DNA from: an uncultured Gammaproteobacteria bacterium
GTDB lineage: Bacteria; Patescibacteriota; Microgenomatia; Daviesbacterales; UBA10151
Direction: 5' to 3'
DNA: 64,000 bases
NCBI GenBank assembly: GCA_964360965.1
Contig: CAYHYM010000004.1
Span: forward strand, 660-64,659
Position numbers and translations under genes: made by a program. Within the stretch, counting starts at the first letter, position 1. Every line of letters begins with the position of its first letter. Positions 6,910 through 31,879 of the stretch are shown in pieces. The notes beneath the pieces were generated by a model. It did no database searches. It had not been told where the DNA came from and worked only from the letters and a program-made list of their open reading frames with translations.

Positions 6910-8505
6910 ATGTCTGTTAAGAAATTAATCTTCAGCTTAGCGGTATCTTTGGCATTTCTTTTGCTACCTGCTACCAACCACCAGCTATTAACTATCTCTG
7001 CTCAAACTACCACTTCCTCTGCCACTGCCTCTACAGCCATCAAACCATTGGGCATAGTCAGCTTTCAATCCCCACAATATATCAACCTGCAAATGATAAA
7101 CCTGATGCACTCTGCCAGTTGCTTGATAAGCGGCATCTCTCCCATAAACCAACCTTGCGTGGAATACATTGGGGGTATCCCCGTACTTTCCTCTGTTAAC
7201 CTATCAGGCGGTATGTTGGGTACTATCAGCACAGGATTGGCACTACTTTATACAAATCCTCCCATCAAAAGCATTGAATACCTGGGTAGTATAGGGGACA
7301 GTTTAAGTTTTTTTGAAGTTAAACAGGCCCAAGCTCAGGTGGGAGGCTCTGGCAGCAAGGTATTATCTCCGGTTTTGGACCTTTGGAAAGTTTCAAGGAA
7401 CATTGCCTATCTAACTATAATGATCATTTTTGTGGTGATTGGGGTGATGGTGATGTTTAGGAACAGAATCAATCCTCAAACAGTCATCACAGTCCAGGCA
7501 GCCCTGCCAGGCCTGGTGATTGGACTCATACTTATTACTTTCAGTTATTTTTTGGCAGCACTATTGGCAGATATTGCTTTTGTGGGCTCAAATATAGTCG
7601 GCCATTATTTTACCATTGCCCAAAGTCAAGCCATCTCTGTCAAAGGACCGGTGAACACTCTAGAAAACGAAAATGTCTTAAGTATCTTTAGCAGATTTTT
7701 TAACACCACCTCCAAAGAACAGTTTATTCCCCTATTTGACACCATCTTTAAAAACCTGCCCACACCAGCCGCTTTAGATATTTTGACTCCTGCCCGTATG
7801 TTTACTTATGTTATTGTGGGAATGACTAACCAAATATTAACCTTAACTGGTATATCCTCTATACCTGTAGCAGGCACTGCTACAGGTATATTTACAGGTA
7901 TTAAAGGACTAACAGATGCACAGGCTACAGGATCATTTTTAGTATGGCTGATCTTAATACTAGTACTGATGTATTCCATGTTTAGAGTACTTTATCGTTT
8001 GATAATCAGTTATTTAACCATCATCTTTTTAACCATCACCGCCCCTTTTCATTTTTTAATTGCCGCTTTCCCGGGAAGACAAGAGGTGGTGACTGTTTGG
8101 GCCAGAAACATGCTGGCCAATATCCTGGTTTTTCCCGGAGTGTTGGCCATATTTTATTTTGCCGGCTATCTGATGGGGCCCACATTATTAACAAGCGCCG
8201 GTGGAGCAGGAGGATTAACTCTTAGTGATCTACTCAATATTAACAATCAATTGGGTGTGGCAGGAGCAAAAACACTGCCGCTTTTGGGAGGATTGGATCA
8301 AACAGTGATCCAGTTAATTCTGGCTTATGGCGCGCTGATTGCCGCACCAGCCATTCCGGAAATTATCATCAATGCCATAGGTAAAGTTGGTCCTGCCGGA
8401 CAGACCATTGGTAGAGAGGTGACTGGAGCTATACAAAGCGGCAGAGGATACCTGCAACAAGGAGCCGGGGCAATTGGTGGAGCCTTGGGAGGCGGTAGAC
8501 GTTAA
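6910..8505 (+). CDS. VirB6/TrbL-like polytopic membrane protein
   Basis: Signal peptide, then at least six hydrophobic helices and a Gly-rich C-terminus; position next to the pilin genes in a T4SS-like locus. Confidence 0.45.
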   Translation: MSVKKLIFSLAVSLAFLLLPATNHQLLTISAQTTTSSATASTAIKPLGIVSFQSPQYINLQMINLMHSASCLISGISPINQPCVEYIGGIPVLSSVNLSGGMLGTISTGLALLYTNPPIKSIEYLGSIGDSLSFFEVKQAQAQVGGSGSKVLSPVLDLWKVSRNIAYLTIMIIFVVIGVMVMFRNRINPQTVITVQAALPGLVIGLILITFSYFLAALLADIAFVGSNIVGHYFTIAQSQAISVKGPVNTLENENVLSIFSRFFNTTSKEQFIPLFDTIFKNLPTPAALDILTPARMFTYVIVGMTNQILTLTGISSIPVAGTATGIFTGIKGLTDAQATGSFLVWLILILVLMYSMFRVLYRLIISYLTIIFLTITAPFHFLIAAFPGRQEVVTVWARNMLANILVFPGVLAIFYFAGYLMGPTLLTSAGGAGGLTLSDLLNINNQLGVAGAKTLPLLGGLDQTVIQLILAYGALIAAPAIPEIIINAIGKVGPAGQTIGREVTGAIQSGRGYLQQGAGAIGGALGGGRR

Positions 8506-20521: not shown

Positions 20522-20528
20522 GGTTTTC

Positions 20529-20618
20529 GTCATTCCTGCGAATGCAGGAATCCATTTAACAAAAAACGTAAACCCATGCCGCTCAAGTTAATTGGATCCC
20601 GACATTCGTCGGGATGAC
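20529..20618. repeat. GC-rich MITE/RPE-like palindromic element (family 1), 90 nt, termini GTCATTCCTGCG...CGTCGGGATGAC
   Basis: Terminal hairpins attcctgcGAATgcaggaat and atcccgacATTCgtcgggat; reverse complement shares both termini plus the internal aattgga with the 108-nt element inside tsaD. Confidence 0.8.
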
Positions 20619-20624
20619 ACCGCT

Positions 20625-27210: not shown

Positions 27211-27990
27211 TTGACCTATATGGACAGATTAAGTTTACATGCCGAGGAGAGAATAATTCTTGGTAAAAAAGTAAAAAGGTTGCGCAAAGATGGCCTTTTG
27301 CCTGGCCATGTCTTTGGCAAAGGACTGGAAGGTGAGACGGTGGCTGTTTCTTCTCGCGATTTTCTAAAGACCTTCCACCTTGCCGGAGAAACCGGATTGA
27401 TAGATTTAAAGATTGGCAAAGAAAAGGTCAGGCCGGTGCTGGTTAGGGAAGTGCAGTATGATCCTGTGTCAGGTCATCCAATCCATATAGATTTCTACCA
27501 GGTTAATTTATCAGAAAAAGTTAAAGTACCTGTTCCTTTGGTTTTGATAGGTGAGCAGCCGGAATCAGTTCATTTGGGTGAGACAATTGTCCTGCAAACT
27601 TTAAATGAGGTGGAAGTAGAAGCCCTGCCCACAGATTTGGTGGAAAAAATAGAAGTGGATATTAGTCCTCTTAAGCTGGTTGACGATGCCATTACTGTGG
27701 GACAGCTCAATTATGATCGAGACAAACTAACCATAGATGCCGGTCCAGAGGAGATTGTGGTTAAACTGGCCCCGGCTGTGACTGCCGAGATGGAAAAACT
27801 TTTGGAAGAGCAGGCTGCTGAAACAGCTGCGGCTGCTGTTGAAACTGAAGAAGAAGGTGCTCCGGCAGAAGGTGAAGCAGTGGAAGGTGCAGAAGCTGCG
27901 GAAGGTGCACCAGGAGCTGAAGTTCCAGCTGGAGAAGAAGTCAAAGCAGAAGCTGGAGAGCCAGCCCAGCCTGAAGAAAACCCCCAATAA
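27211..27990 (+). CDS. rplY: 50S ribosomal protein L25 / general stress protein Ctc with acidic Ala/Glu-rich C-terminal tail
   Basis: Ctc-type L25 fold blocks (LRKDGLLPGHVFGKG...IDLKIGKEKVRPVLVREVQYDPV); low-complexity GCA/GAA-rich tail. Confidence 0.7.
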   Translation: MTYMDRLSLHAEERIILGKKVKRLRKDGLLPGHVFGKGLEGETVAVSSRDFLKTFHLAGETGLIDLKIGKEKVRPVLVREVQYDPVSGHPIHIDFYQVNLSEKVKVPVPLVLIGEQPESVHLGETIVLQTLNEVEVEALPTDLVEKIEVDISPLKLVDDAITVGQLNYDRDKLTIDAGPEEIVVKLAPAVTAEMEKLLEEQAAETAAAAVETEEEGAPAEGEAVEGAEAAEGAPGAEVPAGEEVKAEAGEPAQPEENPQ

Positions 27991-28073: not shown

Positions 28074-30284
28074 TTAGGCACGAGGCCAATCAGAGATCAT
28101 TATGGATTCCCCTTTATGAGGTAGTTTTTGCCATAATTCTTCTGTAATAAAGGGCATGAATGGATGAAGCAGTTCTAGGCTGGTTTTGAAAACATACTCT
28201 AAAACAGGTTGAGCTTCAGCTCTTCTTTCTTTGGTAGATTCAATATATTTATCTGCAAACTCATGCCAGATAAAATCATATAAGATATTGGCAGCATCAT
28301 GGAATCTGAAAGCTTCCAAGGCTTTAGTAACCTTTTCAGTAGTTTCTGCTAATTTTTTAATAATTTCTTTATCATCAGCATTGTCATTGCGAGGAGTCTG
28401 CGACGAAGCAATCTGGATTGGAGATTGCCACGGTCGCCCAGGCGACCTCGCAATGACGTCTTTATTTGGATTAAACTCAATGATGAAGCGGCCAATATTC
28501 CAAAGCTTATTGGTAAAATTTCTCATAGCCTGGAGTTTAGGATGAGACAGGGATTGATCATGGCCCAAAGCTGTGCCGTAAATTAGAGCCATCCTGGCTG
28601 CATCTGCCCCGTATTGATCTGTAACTTCTAAGGGATTGACTACGTTATTTTTAGATTTACTCATTTTTTTGCCTAAAGGATCTAAAACCATGCCATGTAA
28701 AACAATATCTTGAAAAGGGATTTTGTTGGTAGCGTATAAACCCAGCATGATCATTCTGGCCACCCAGAAAAATAAAATTTCTCTACCTGTTTCTATAATT
28801 TGAGTTGGATAGAATTTTTCAAAATCTCCGCCAGCTGGCGGATTGGTGGTCTGCAAAGTAGCGAAGGTCCACTGACCTGAAGAAAACCAGGTATCAAAAG
28901 TGTCTTGATCCTGTTCCAGGGTGGAGTCATTACAAGAGCTGCATGTATCCGGCTTTTCACCTTCAGTAACAGTCCATTTTTTGCAAGAATCACAATACCA
29001 GGCAGGAATCTGTATTCCCCAGATAATTTGCCTGGAGATATTCCAATCCCTGATATTTTTAAGCCAGTTAAAGTAAATTTTGGCAAAATTTTTGGGATAA
29101 ATTTTTATTTTCCCAGATTTTACTGCCTCAATTGCTTTTTTTGCCAAAGGTTCAACTTTTATAAACCACTGCTCCAAAGGCAGGGGTTCAATTACATTTT
29201 TACACTTATAACAAAGGCCAATTCTGTGTTTGTATTCATAATCAACTTTTTCTAAAAGTTCTTTTTGCTCTAATTCTTCTACAACTGCCTGTTTTGCCGC
29301 TTTCACACTCATTCCGGAAAACTTTCCCGCACTAGCATTTAACCTTCCATCAAAGCCAATCACCTGAACAATAGGTAGGTTATGGATTTGAGCTCTTGCA
29401 AAATCATCCATGTCATGGGCTGGGGTAAGTTTGATAATTCCTGTTCCAAAAGTAGGATCAACAGTGTCATCCGCTATAATTTTCATCTCTTTGTCTGTTA
29501 AAGGATTTTTTACTTTTCTACCTGTATACCGGGAATTTTTCTTATCTTTTGGGTTAATAGCCAGATAGTCATCAATCATGATTGGCTCTGGTCTGGTGGT
29601 AGCAATAACTAAATATTCTGGCTCGCCAGCTTTGCTGTTAATTAGTGGGTAGCGGACATAATATAGCGGATCTTTTCTTTCTTCATAAACTACTTCTAAA
29701 TCAGAAAAGGAGGTGCCATTTGTAGTGCAGTAATTAACCAATCTTTGGGTTCTGTAAACCAATCCATCATCAAACAGTTTTTTAAAGGTTTTGTAGACAA
29801 CTTTGACAATATCAGGATCAAGAGTAAATTTTTGTCTGGACCAATCAAGAGAAAACCCCAGTCTTTTGAGTTGCTGTTCCATATTTCCTCTATTCTCTGC
29901 CACAAAATCCCAAATCATCTGATAAAGGGTGGTTCTGTCGTAATCAAATCTGGATTTTCCTTGATTCTCAAGATGTTTTTCAAAAACAAATTGTGTTTCA
30001 AAACCGGCATGGTCTGCTCCGGGCAGCCACAAAGTAGCTTCACCTTTCATCCTATGATATCGGATGAGAATATCTTCAATGGTATACATGGCATGGCCAA
30101 AATGTAGGGGGGCATTGGCATTGGGTGGAGGTAAGATGATGGTAAAAGGTTTGCCATCAGGATTTATTTCAGGCTTAAAATAGCCTGCCTTTTCCCAAAA
30201 TTTGTACCATTTTTGTTCAACCTTAGTTTGATTATAAACTTTGTCCATCAGCATAAGTATAGGGTGCTTGTAGTAGTTGGTCAA
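28074..30284 (-). CDS. valS: valyl-tRNA synthetase (reduced form) with in-frame repeat insertion in the C-terminal domain
   Basis: HIGH region PPPNANAPLHFGHA, KMSKS motif, ValRS-like blocks; the 75-nt GC-rich element is read through in frame. Confidence 0.8.
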   Translation of the reverse strand: MTNYYKHPILMLMDKVYNQTKVEQKWYKFWEKAGYFKPEINPDGKPFTIILPPPNANAPLHFGHAMYTIEDILIRYHRMKGEATLWLPGADHAGFETQFVFEKHLENQGKSRFDYDRTTLYQMIWDFVAENRGNMEQQLKRLGFSLDWSRQKFTLDPDIVKVVYKTFKKLFDDGLVYRTQRLVNYCTTNGTSFSDLEVVYEERKDPLYYVRYPLINSKAGEPEYLVIATTRPEPIMIDDYLAINPKDKKNSRYTGRKVKNPLTDKEMKIIADDTVDPTFGTGIIKLTPAHDMDDFARAQIHNLPIVQVIGFDGRLNASAGKFSGMSVKAAKQAVVEELEQKELLEKVDYEYKHRIGLCYKCKNVIEPLPLEQWFIKVEPLAKKAIEAVKSGKIKIYPKNFAKIYFNWLKNIRDWNISRQIIWGIQIPAWYCDSCKKWTVTEGEKPDTCSSCNDSTLEQDQDTFDTWFSSGQWTFATLQTTNPPAGGDFEKFYPTQIIETGREILFFWVARMIMLGLYATNKIPFQDIVLHGMVLDPLGKKMSKSKNNVVNPLEVTDQYGADAARMALIYGTALGHDQSLSHPKLQAMRNFTNKLWNIGRFIIEFNPNKDVIARSPGRPWQSPIQIASSQTPRNDNADDKEIIKKLAETTEKVTKALEAFRFHDAANILYDFIWHEFADKYIESTKERRAEAQPVLEYVFKTSLELLHPFMPFITEELWQKLPHKGESIMISDWPRA
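28383..28457. repeat. 75-nt GC-rich element with perfect 12-bp terminal inverted repeats GTCATTGCGAGG/CCTCGCAATGAC inside valS
   Basis: Direct reading; internal hairpin gtcgccCAGgcgac; length is a multiple of 3 and it is translated in frame. Confidence 0.8.
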
Positions 30285-30736: not shown

Positions 30737-31879
30737 TCAAGCGAGGGATAAATTGGGATCTGCCTGAAGTTTTAAAGGATTTGGGATGGGTTTTTGGAAA
30801 AATCCAGCTGCTGCAATCATGGCTCCGTTATCTGTACACAAGTCTGGTGGAGGAATATATAATTTAATATTTGAATTCAAACTGTCCACTGTAACCTGTA
30901 ACCTGTCAACTAACTTTTTATTTGCAGCCACACCGCCGGCAATCATGATATTTTTCACAGGATGAACTTTTAATGCCTGGATTACTTTTTCTACTAAAGA
31001 TTCAACTATGGTATTTTCAATAGCAGCAGCCAGATCTTGCTTCACCTCCGAGGAGTCAAAGCCCACCTCGGAGGTGTGTACCAGGTTTGCTACTGCAGTT
31101 TTTAAGCCTGAATAAGAGAAATCAAAATCTTTTGATCCCTTCATAGGAATGGGAAGTTTAAATCTATTTGGATTACCTTTTTGAGCCAGTTTGGAAATTT
31201 CCGGTCCTCCTGGATAGGAAAGTCCTAATAATCTGGCACATTTATCAAAGCACTCACCTGCCGCATCATCCCTGGTGCCACCTAAATAATCATACTTGCC
31301 ATGACTGGTAAAAAGCACTAAATCCGTATGCCCACCTGAAACCAGTAAGCCTAAACAAGGAAATACTGGTACTTCACCTCCGGGATGTTCTGTTTGAATC
31401 CAGTTGGCATAAAAGTGGCCAAGTAAATGGTTAACTGGTATTAATGGTTTATTCCAAACTAAGGCTAGAGTTTTGGCTGTTTCTACTCCCACCAAAAGGG
31501 ATCCAATCAGTCCTGGACCGTATGTGACAGCTATGGCATCAATTTTCTTTATTCTGTCATCCCGACGAATGTCGGGATCCAATTCCGAACGTGACTTTGT
31601 TAATTGGATTCTCCTCGAGTCTGAGCGACCTCGGAGTCGAAGACCTGCATTCGCAGGAATGACATCGGGAAAGATTTGACTTAGTGCTTCCTCAATTACC
31701 GGAATAATGCTTTTGATCTGTTCCCTGGCAGCTTGTTCCGGAATAATTCCTCCATATTTGGCTTGTAAATTAGCTGATGATGCTACGACATTGGATAATA
31801 TTTTTACTCCATCTTTATCCTTTATCAATATAGCAACTGCTGTCTCATCGCAACTAGTTTCAATACCGAGTATTATCAT
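30737..31879 (-). CDS. tsaD: tRNA N6-adenosine threonylcarbamoyltransferase TsaD (Kae1/Gcp) with a 36-aa in-frame repeat insertion
   Basis: MIILGIETSCDET...HLLGH...GGVAANK blocks; length about 380 aa against a typical 340. Confidence 0.85.
   Translation of the reverse strand: MIILGIETSCDETAVAILIKDKDGVKILSNVVASSANLQAKYGGIIPEQAAREQIKSIIPVIEEALSQIFPDVIPANAGLRLRGRSDSRRIQLTKSRSELDPDIRRDDRIKKIDAIAVTYGPGLIGSLLVGVETAKTLALVWNKPLIPVNHLLGHFYANWIQTEHPGGEVPVFPCLGLLVSGGHTDLVLFTSHGKYDYLGGTRDDAAGECFDKCARLLGLSYPGGPEISKLAQKGNPNRFKLPIPMKGSKDFDFSYSGLKTAVANLVHTSEVGFDSSEVKQDLAAAIENTIVESLVEKVIQALKVHPVKNIMIAGGVAANKKLVDRLQVTVDSLNSNIKLYIPPPDLCTDNGAMIAAAGFFQKPIPNPLKLQADPNLSLA
31556..31663. repeat. 108-nt family-1 GC-rich MITE/RPE-like element inside tsaD (termini GTCATCCCGACG...CGCAGGAATGAC)
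   Basis: First 29 nt and last 23 nt are identical to the reverse complement of the rpmH-rnpA copy; multiple of 3; encodes ...LDPDIRRDD... in frame. Confidence 0.85.

Follow-up and report, generated by a model that had tools for sequence, protein, structure and literature searches.

The valyl-tRNA synthetase (ValRS) gene valS of a Candidatus Daviesbacteria genome, which lies on the minus strand of the 64-kb stretch of contig CAYHYM010000004.1 analysed here (hereafter the window), contains within its reading frame a 75-nt palindromic element at positions 28383-28457. The element is of the type formed by CGTC-tagged repetitive extragenic palindromes (REPs) and Ssn-related motifs (SRMs), and it represents a structurally variant sub-family of that type in a new phylum and a new host gene. 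We consider it highly probable that the element is an inverted pair of such units that is carried in frame, is read through as a tolerated loop of the enzyme, and has spread by way of single-stranded DNA (ssDNA) hairpins.

The full sequence of the element is GTCATTGCGAGGAGTCTGCGACGAAGCAATCTGGATTGGAGATTGCCACGGTCGCCCAGGCGACCTCGCAATGAC, with the ends GTCATTGCGAGG and CCTCGCAATGAC. Its terminal arms are 12 nt each, 100% complementary and separated by 51 nt, in agreement with a preliminary description of this DNA that had reported a 75-nt element with perfect 12-bp inverted repeats. No third copy of the exact 12-mer arm occurs in the 64-kb window, and matches with two mismatches are at chance level. 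First-order Markov simulations of the window gave a mean of 1.26 perfect 12-nt inverted-repeat pairs within 100 nt, and at least one pair with arms of 50% GC or more was present in 14% of the simulations; a perfect 12-nt inverted repeat alone is therefore not improbable in 64 kb. The entire 75 nt folds into a single long imperfect hairpin, with energies of -24.3 kcal/mol as DNA (z -7.1) and -38.4 kcal/mol as RNA (z -6.2), and none of 200 shuffled sequences folded as well. The GC content of the element is 58.7%, compared with 39.3% for the window, and is about 20 points higher than that of valS. Because of its folding relative to shuffled sequences, its absence from most orthologues, and its recurrence at 240 or more other loci (see below), there is no doubt that 28383-28457 is a discrete, real element. 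Reading from the first base or one base in, the element is free of stop codons on both strands, and the third frame ends in TGA. Rfam searches at the element returned chance small nucleolar RNA matches only, all below threshold, and zero gathering-level matches were obtained in 15 loci that carry copies of the family.

The element consists of two non-identical hairpin repeat units in tail-to-tail arrangement, the (C/T)GTC tag of each pointing outward. Unit A (35 nt, positions 28423-28457, minus strand) reads GTCATTGCGAG-GTCGCCTGGGCGAC-CGTG-GCAATC and is preceded by a C, the complement of the G at 28458, which gives the tag CGTC. Unit B (31 nt, positions 28383-28413, plus strand) reads GTCATTGCGAG-GAGTCTGCGAC-GAA-GCAATC, and the T at 28382 that precedes it gives the tag TGTC. 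The 9-nt spacer TGGATTGGA between the unit tails (28414-28422) is the loop of the long hairpin. A small hairpin, GTCGCCCAGGCGAC, is present at 28433-28446, as reported previously; it is not a separate cargo enclosed by the repeats and instead constitutes the distal stem of unit A (GTCGCC-CA-GGCGAC). The 12-bp arms likewise are inverted repeats, but the earlier designation of terminal inverted repeats (TIRs), in the sense of transposon ends, does not hold: they are the heads of two inverted REP-type units, and none of 125 copies of the family is flanked by a target duplication.

All units follow the same plan, in which a (C/T)GTC tag is combined with a basal stem of 5 bp (ATTGC/GCAAT), an internal loop of small size, a distal hairpin that varies between copies, and, following the palindrome, an invariant C. 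In a sample of 482 units, GTC is preceded by C in 253 cases and by T in 204 (457/482, 95%). Of 252 arms from a search that demanded the termini only, 230 contain the internal GCAAT, and C is the next base in 228 of these 230. The bases following the invariant C are CAG, giving CCAG, in 105 of the 482 units and are otherwise variable; the two units of the window have CTCC and CTGG. The distal parts vary in sequence yet tend to be self-complementary, with a mean best stem of 3.6 bp compared with 2.5 bp after shuffling (156 distinct middle parts), and distal stems of 6-10 bp are present in 30 of the 156. Differing distal stems analogous to that of unit A are found at loci L011, L023, L041, L042, L077, and L114, and the stem sequences in other copies include CACCC/GGGTG, GCCTGC/GCAGGC, GCCCC/GGGGC, GCTCGCC/GGCGAGC, and CCGCC/GGCGG. 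Unit B is the commonest variant (109/482 units) in this sample, which is biased in that half of the loci were fetched with a 22-mer from unit B.

Copies of the GTCATTGCGAG...GAAGCAATC sub-family are widely dispersed. Genomes were scanned, one per species, with the pattern GTCATTGCGA-N44-72-TCGCAATGAC, in which only the 10-nt termini were required, and at least 120 loci were recovered from hosts ranging from 33 to 72% GC. A scan of metagenomes with the unit-B 22-mer yielded at least 120 exact matches, mainly on contigs of 35-45% GC, bringing the two collections together to at least 240 loci. The hosts listed in the genome scan belong to the Alpha-, Gamma-, and Deltaproteobacteria, Bacteroidota, Cyanobacteria, Chloroflexi, Planctomycetota, Nitrospirota, and Patescibacteria, and those named among the matches listed include Bradyrhizobium, Sphingomonas, Pedobacter, Mucilaginibacter, Flavobacterium, Nostoc, and Microcoleus. 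The element thus belongs to a dispersed, multi-copy family of many bacterial phyla. Literature searches found no match to the DNA strings of the element or to its typical translated peptides, and nothing relevant on MITEs (miniature transposable elements with inverted repeats) in Patescibacteria.

Copies of the family are found both between genes and, in frame, within them. In the genome set, in-frame copies occur in genes for GuaA, UvrA, and a peptidoglycan transglycosylase; among 100 distinct low-GC metagenome matches, 19 lie in frame inside long open reading frames (ORFs), many of them encoding the peptide IASSQTPRND that is also present in the window ValRS. Every intragenic copy examined (valS orthologues, tsaD, guaA, uvrA, and the 19 metagenome ORFs) is stop-free in the frame of its host, and the lengths of those that could be delimited are multiples of three, with the exception of a 70-nt copy at L110. 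The lengths of the copies overall, most of which are intergenic, are spread 47/45/33 over the three residue classes modulo 3. The stop-free intragenic copies, set against lengths elsewhere that fall in all residue classes, argue that the intragenic copies are translated and not removed.

The host gene valS (28074-30254, minus strand) is intact. Its annotated product, P0001, is 726 residues long, and the mechanically defined ORF runs on to 30284. The closest database matches of the ORF are ValRS proteins of Candidatus Daviesbacteria, the identical protein being P0001, and both the HIGH-type motif (HFGH) and the KMSKS motif are intact. The 75 nt are in frame and add 25 codons, VIARSPGRPWQSPIQIASSQTPRND, corresponding to residues 600-624 of P0001. 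The preliminary description had placed these 25 residues in the C-terminal domain generally. The addition of 25 residues is confirmed, but the site is a more specific one, between the Pfam domains tRNA-synt_1 (residues 25-579 of the ORF) and Anticodon_1 (residues 638-734). In an alignment with Thermus thermophilus ValRS (1GAX), the site of the insert is a short inter-helix loop at about residues 590-603 of 1GAX, situated between the first helices of the anticodon-binding helical domain. The loop of this domain that holds the element is variable in length. An AlphaFold2 model of the enzyme, computed with an alignment of 114 orthologues, has a mean pLDDT of 91.8 and a pTM of 0.89. Residues 603-625 are modelled as coil with pLDDT values of about 52, dropping below 50 at 609-616, and are flanked by helices 571-593/598-602 and 626-647. 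As predicted by the model, the insert is a floppy, low-confidence loop on a confidently modelled enzyme core. The valS product ends at the equivalent of residue 707 of the 862 residues of T. thermophilus ValRS, from which it follows that the C-terminal coiled-coil domain is absent.

The history of the site was evaluated in a set of 120 Daviesbacteria ValRS sequences, in which the linker was defined as the segment from the GRFI helix to the DDKxI helix. The linker is 14-24 residues long in most of these orthologues and reaches 55 residues in some. Most of the 120, and T. thermophilus ValRS, have no trace of the insert, which supports the earlier proposal of an in-frame insertion into valS; the same peptide segment was not found conserved at ordinary GC in ValRS of unrelated lineages. 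At least two hallmarks of translated repeats, such as VIA/VIP..., ...RND/QND/QHD, or SHPELVSGS, are present in the linkers of 18 of the 120 orthologues (at least 15%).

Repeats from three families were verified in the DNA of several of these linkers. L004 and L248 carry the family of the window element, positioned 8-10 codons further downstream. The L246 linker contains a CGTC-1-like dimer, TGTC ATCCCTGG ... CCGGAAT GAC, and the L247 linker contains a third repeat family, GTC ATCCCGAA CTCG TTTCGGGAT ... GATGCTGAA TCAAG TTCAGCAT GAC. No repeat unit was found in the L005 valS linker. The closest relatives of the window gene, L001 and L003 (75-76% nucleotide identity), carry units in the opposite arrangement, head to head (...CTCGCAATGAC|GTCATTGCGA...), with either an ATGAC|GTCAT junction or a 24-nt spacer. 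The head-to-head form in L001 and L003, compared with the tail-to-tail form in the window, suggests that units are added singly beside existing units. Unit B (28383-28413) and positions 11749-11779 of L001 are identical at 31 of 31 nt, although the valS genes overall are 74.8% identical. This identity could reflect recent independent acquisition, conversion, or sequence constraint; it was rejected as proof of common descent because no other unit variant is as common in metagenomes. The family of the window element must have entered by two or more independent events, and the two other families by events of their own. The ValRS linker is thus a site at which units repeatedly either land or survive.

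The assignment of the units to a type rests on comparison with several described systems. CGTC-tagged REPs have been reported in five phyla, mostly as dimers (Di Nocera, De Gregorio, Rocco, 2013, BMC Genomics 14:522; PMC3733652). As described in the text of that paper, they have a CGTC or TGTC tag (CCTC is allowed), a stem starting with AT, and a short CCA tail. Members include Neisseria dRS3 and the Rickettsia palindromic elements RPE-4 (CGTC-4 units) and RPE-6 (CGTC-1 units), and in-frame copies encoding 20-30 residues are described in many genes, including those for GlyRS-beta and IleRS of E. litoralis; the text reports no dedicated transposase. The valS units share with them an unpaired CGTC/TGTC tag, a stem-loop with an AT start, and a C in the tail. 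Further common properties are a multi-copy, dispersed distribution, head-to-head or tail-to-tail dimers that are often heterodimers, and in-frame intragenic copies, aminoacyl-tRNA synthetase genes among them. The described CGTC REPs have continuous stems of 8-9 bp and loops of 4-5 nt, whereas in the valS unit a basal stem of 5 bp is followed by an internal loop and a variable distal hairpin. Tail-to-tail dimers are rare according to the paper but abundant in the valS sub-family; the intragenic list of the paper lacks the peptides VIASEAKQS, ...LAMT, and ...PRND that are typical of the sub-family; and Patescibacteria, or candidate phyla radiation (CPR) bacteria, are not among its five reported phyla. 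These distinctions apply to the text and supplements of the paper, and a variant in its Figure 2 could overlap with the valS sub-family.

The SRMs and the nuclease that acts on them were characterized by Chenal et al. (2025, Nat Commun 16:2388; PMC11893778). Ssn is a small single-domain GIY-YIG protein that binds repeat hairpins only as ssDNA. Binding depends critically on the C that follows the palindrome and cutting on the three bases that precede it, and cleavage occurs a few bases upstream of the repeat. The ssn genes are typically flanked by repeats (repeat-ssnA-repeat), and repeat-Ssn interactions modulate transformation in Neisseria (PMC11893778). The valS sub-family shares with NTS and SRM repeats the HGTC head, the hairpin, the critical C directly after the palindrome, and, at L159, L262, and L263, the repeat-gene-repeat arrangement around ssn-type genes. 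It differs from them in that the window copy has no ssn gene nearby in the 64 kb, and the SRM paper discusses neither in-frame intragenic copies nor CPR bacteria.

Other systems share fewer of these properties. RPE-1 is about 100-150 bp long and genus-restricted (Ogata et al., 2000, 2002, as summarised in PMC10969869); like the valS element it is palindromic, occurs in frame within housekeeping genes and is translated, and it has been proposed to occupy fold-tolerant sites. Compared with RPE-1 as described in that summary, the valS element is shorter (75 nt), is composed of two REP-type units, and belongs to a family that extends across many phyla. GTAG REPs and REPINs with their RAYT enzymes have in common with the sub-family the inverted hairpin pairs, one small nuclease gene flanked by repeats, and ssDNA hairpin chemistry, but their tag is GTAG instead of CGTC, and their enzyme is an HUH Y1 transposase instead of a GIY-YIG nuclease.

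The valS sub-family is associated with ssn genes. An ssn-type ORF is positioned exactly between two units of the sub-family at L159, L262, and L263. The left unit at L159, upstream of ssn, is identical to unit B of the window, and the L159 protein is 46% identical to a Neisseria gonorrhoeae homologue that is itself located among dRS3/NTS repeats. The N-terminal extensions of the GIY-YIG homologues P0181 and P0198 are translated units. At 12 of 13 plasmid or chromid GIY-YIG loci, CGTC/TGTC units are present within about 100 nt, on both sides in 11 cases, and their sequence differs from host to host. By a strict regular expression a GIY-YIG gene was detected at only 1 of the 120 loci listed; the association is supported by tblastn, the N-terminal extensions, and the plasmid loci. 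The contigs with the order unit-ssn-unit indicate that the valS element resembles an ORF-less derivative of such an arrangement. Separately, a distant GIY-YIG gene in the region 7600-8250 of L136 has on both sides arrays of another repeat (GTTCTC...CTCGAACGGTA) that has no CGTC tag.

These observations are consistent with a mechanism in which the units spread via ssDNA hairpins that would be recognised by a small GIY-YIG Ssn nuclease. The enzyme would bind the hairpin together with the following C and cut a few bases upstream of the tag; with the tags of the valS dimer pointing outward, the predicted cuts would lie just outside both ends of the element and on opposite strands. Unit-ssn-unit contigs would then represent the gene-carrying form, and the 75-nt dimer an ORF-less derivative. 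Selection may retain in essential genes only those copies that are in frame, stop-free, and located in permissive surface loops, and such a filter would also explain the presence of segments from three repeat families in this linker among other Daviesbacteria. As judged from the reading frame, the 25 extra residues are probably read through into ValRS.

Several points weigh against this interpretation. The sequences compared include no near-identical filled and empty pair of sites, and the insertion event is neither dated nor delimited. That the insert is translated, and that the enzyme carrying it is active, is inferred. The GTCATTGCGAG...GAAGCAATC sub-family is represented by a single copy in the 64-kb window. 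Continuous pairing in the stem of the valS unit extends over 5 bp, compared with 8-9 bp in the four CGTC families described in the text of PMC3733652. The SRM pattern HGTCWYN(0-2)YYVSBRHN(0-5)WNVSBRGN(0-2)RNCYNB has zero matches on either strand of the window, and it also fails on both valS units, on the family consensus, and on CGTC-1-like units. The activities shown for Ssn are ssDNA cleavage and modulation of transformation, movement of repeats not being among them (PMC11893778). Neither the window nor about 150 kb of related Daviesbacteria loci yielded a GIY-YIG homologue. Finally, the 13 plasmid and chromid loci come from repeat-rich hosts, and their counts carry no control for background repeat density.

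The cut-and-paste model of a DDE-transposase element, in which the 12-bp ends would be recognised as TIRs in the manner of a MITE and insertion would duplicate the target, draws on the perfect 12-bp repeats, the small size, and the multi-copy, dispersed distribution of the element. It is nonetheless very unlikely. No target-site duplication of 4 nt or longer was found in 125 copies, and direct identity between the flanks is at chance. The 120 genome loci listed yielded neither a longer version of the element that carries a transposase between the same ends nor a same-ended insertion sequence of the kind that accompanies MITEs; the only gene found between such ends is the GIY-YIG nuclease. In addition, single units and head-to-head pairs exist, including at the orthologous valS site, and these point to unit-wise REP behaviour and not to a fixed two-ended transposon. 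We regard it as scarcely credible that the segment is a native, ancestral ValRS linker that is palindromic by accident and was lost in other lineages. The length of the linker does vary in the clade (14-55 residues), and the nearest relatives, P0002 and P0003, carry repeat-like peptides there, but the same DNA is present in unrelated loci and genes by the hundreds, it exceeds the gene in GC content by 20 points, and the insert is missing from most orthologues and from the T. thermophilus enzyme. Neighbouring lineages, moreover, hold other repeat families at slightly different codons.

CPR bacteria are known to carry intervening sequences in rRNA genes. This precedent, together with the very stable RNA hairpin, raises the question of whether the segment is removed in the manner of an intron or intein before the protein is made or matured, leaving ValRS unaltered. 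Such removal is highly improbable: all intragenic copies examined are stop-free and the delimited ones, apart from that at L110, have lengths in multiples of three, as expected if selection acts on translated sequence; Rfam gave no match to an intron or any other family; and 25 residues are too few for an intein. An unlikely, though less remote, alternative is that the copy has been co-opted, either as an Ssn target that limits recombination of incoming DNA around valS, as an mRNA hairpin with an effect on translation or stability, or as a basic loop contacting tRNA in an enzyme without the C-terminal coiled-coil. The complete identity of unit B between the window and L001 in genes of 74.8% identity would fit such a role, as would the repeat-derived segments in at least 15% of orthologous linkers, the effect of repeat-Ssn interactions on transformation in Neisseria (PMC11893778), and the termination of this ValRS short of the C-terminal coiled-coil. 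Against co-option, the sequences and families of the inserts differ among close relatives, most orthologues have none, and the AlphaFold2 model predicts a disordered loop; the identical unit is also the commonest metagenome variant, such that its identity may mean recent or repeated acquisition.

Within the interpretation of the element as an inverted pair of CGTC-tagged units, a stronger and more tentative version can be formulated, which we consider possible but doubtful. The GTCATTGCGAG...GAAGCAATC units would be the ends of a mobile ssn cassette, and the widespread 65-90-nt tail-to-tail dimers, that of valS among them, would be ORF-less derivatives that are still inserted by an Ssn-dependent single-strand mechanism. 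In the small genomes of CPR bacteria, new surface loops of essential proteins would be seeded repeatedly in this way, with the ValRS linker as a recurrent site of landing or survival. If true, this would constitute the first evidence for transposition of an Ssn element, and CGTC REPs, together with some Rickettsia palindromic elements, would gain the mobilising enzyme that has long been missing.

Palindromic repeats that lie in frame within housekeeping genes have for the most part been regarded as peculiar to Rickettsia and a few proteobacteria. The valS case places the same process in a CPR bacterium and in an essential aminoacyl-tRNA synthetase. The occurrence of three repeat families in one linker provides a natural series with which tolerance or use of the inserts, and targeting as opposed to a selection filter, can be addressed. 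The GTCATTGCGAG...GAAGCAATC sub-family was probably missed by the 2025 SRM survey, and because neither the family definitions of 2013 nor the SRM pattern of 2025 captures it, surveys of Ssn repeats likely undercount. With respect to annotation, translated units of the forms VIA...PRND, SLRG...LAMT, and HCE... account for many unusual insertions in metagenomic proteins and for many spurious small ORFs there.

Two other repeats in the window share the GTCAT/ATGAC ends of the valS element, as had been pointed out in the preliminary description for its 'family 1'. The first, at 20528-20619 between two genes, is a CGTC-1-like tail-to-tail heterodimer, CGTC ATTCCTGC GAAT GCAGGAAT CCA ... TGG ATCCCGAC ATTC GTCGGGAT GACA, with the stems ATTCCTGC and ATCCCGAC. 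The second, at 31555-31663 (minus strand), is a CGTC-1-like tail-to-tail dimer located in frame in tsaD. Both fit the CGTC-1 description of an 8-bp stem and a 4-nt loop given in the text of PMC3733652. One unit of the tsaD dimer is split by a nested 33-nt palindromic insert, TCTTCGACTCCGAGGTCGCTCAGACTCGAGGAG, which is absent from the orthologous 75-nt element at positions 8621-8695 of L001.

The region 7860-7890 contains a perfect palindrome of 14 nt, TATACCTGTAGCAG/CTGCTACAGGTATA, whose loop measures 3 nt. ARAGORN detected zero tRNA or tmRNA genes in the whole 64 kb. The gene for ribosomal protein L25/TL5 at 27211-27990 encodes a C-terminal tail that is Glu/Ala-rich and of low complexity, and the corresponding DNA is GC-rich. 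Paralogous blocks at 35.5-36.5, 41.5-42.1, and 63.2-63.7 kb are mutually 83-86% identical and make up the direct repeat families D2, D3, D7, and D10.

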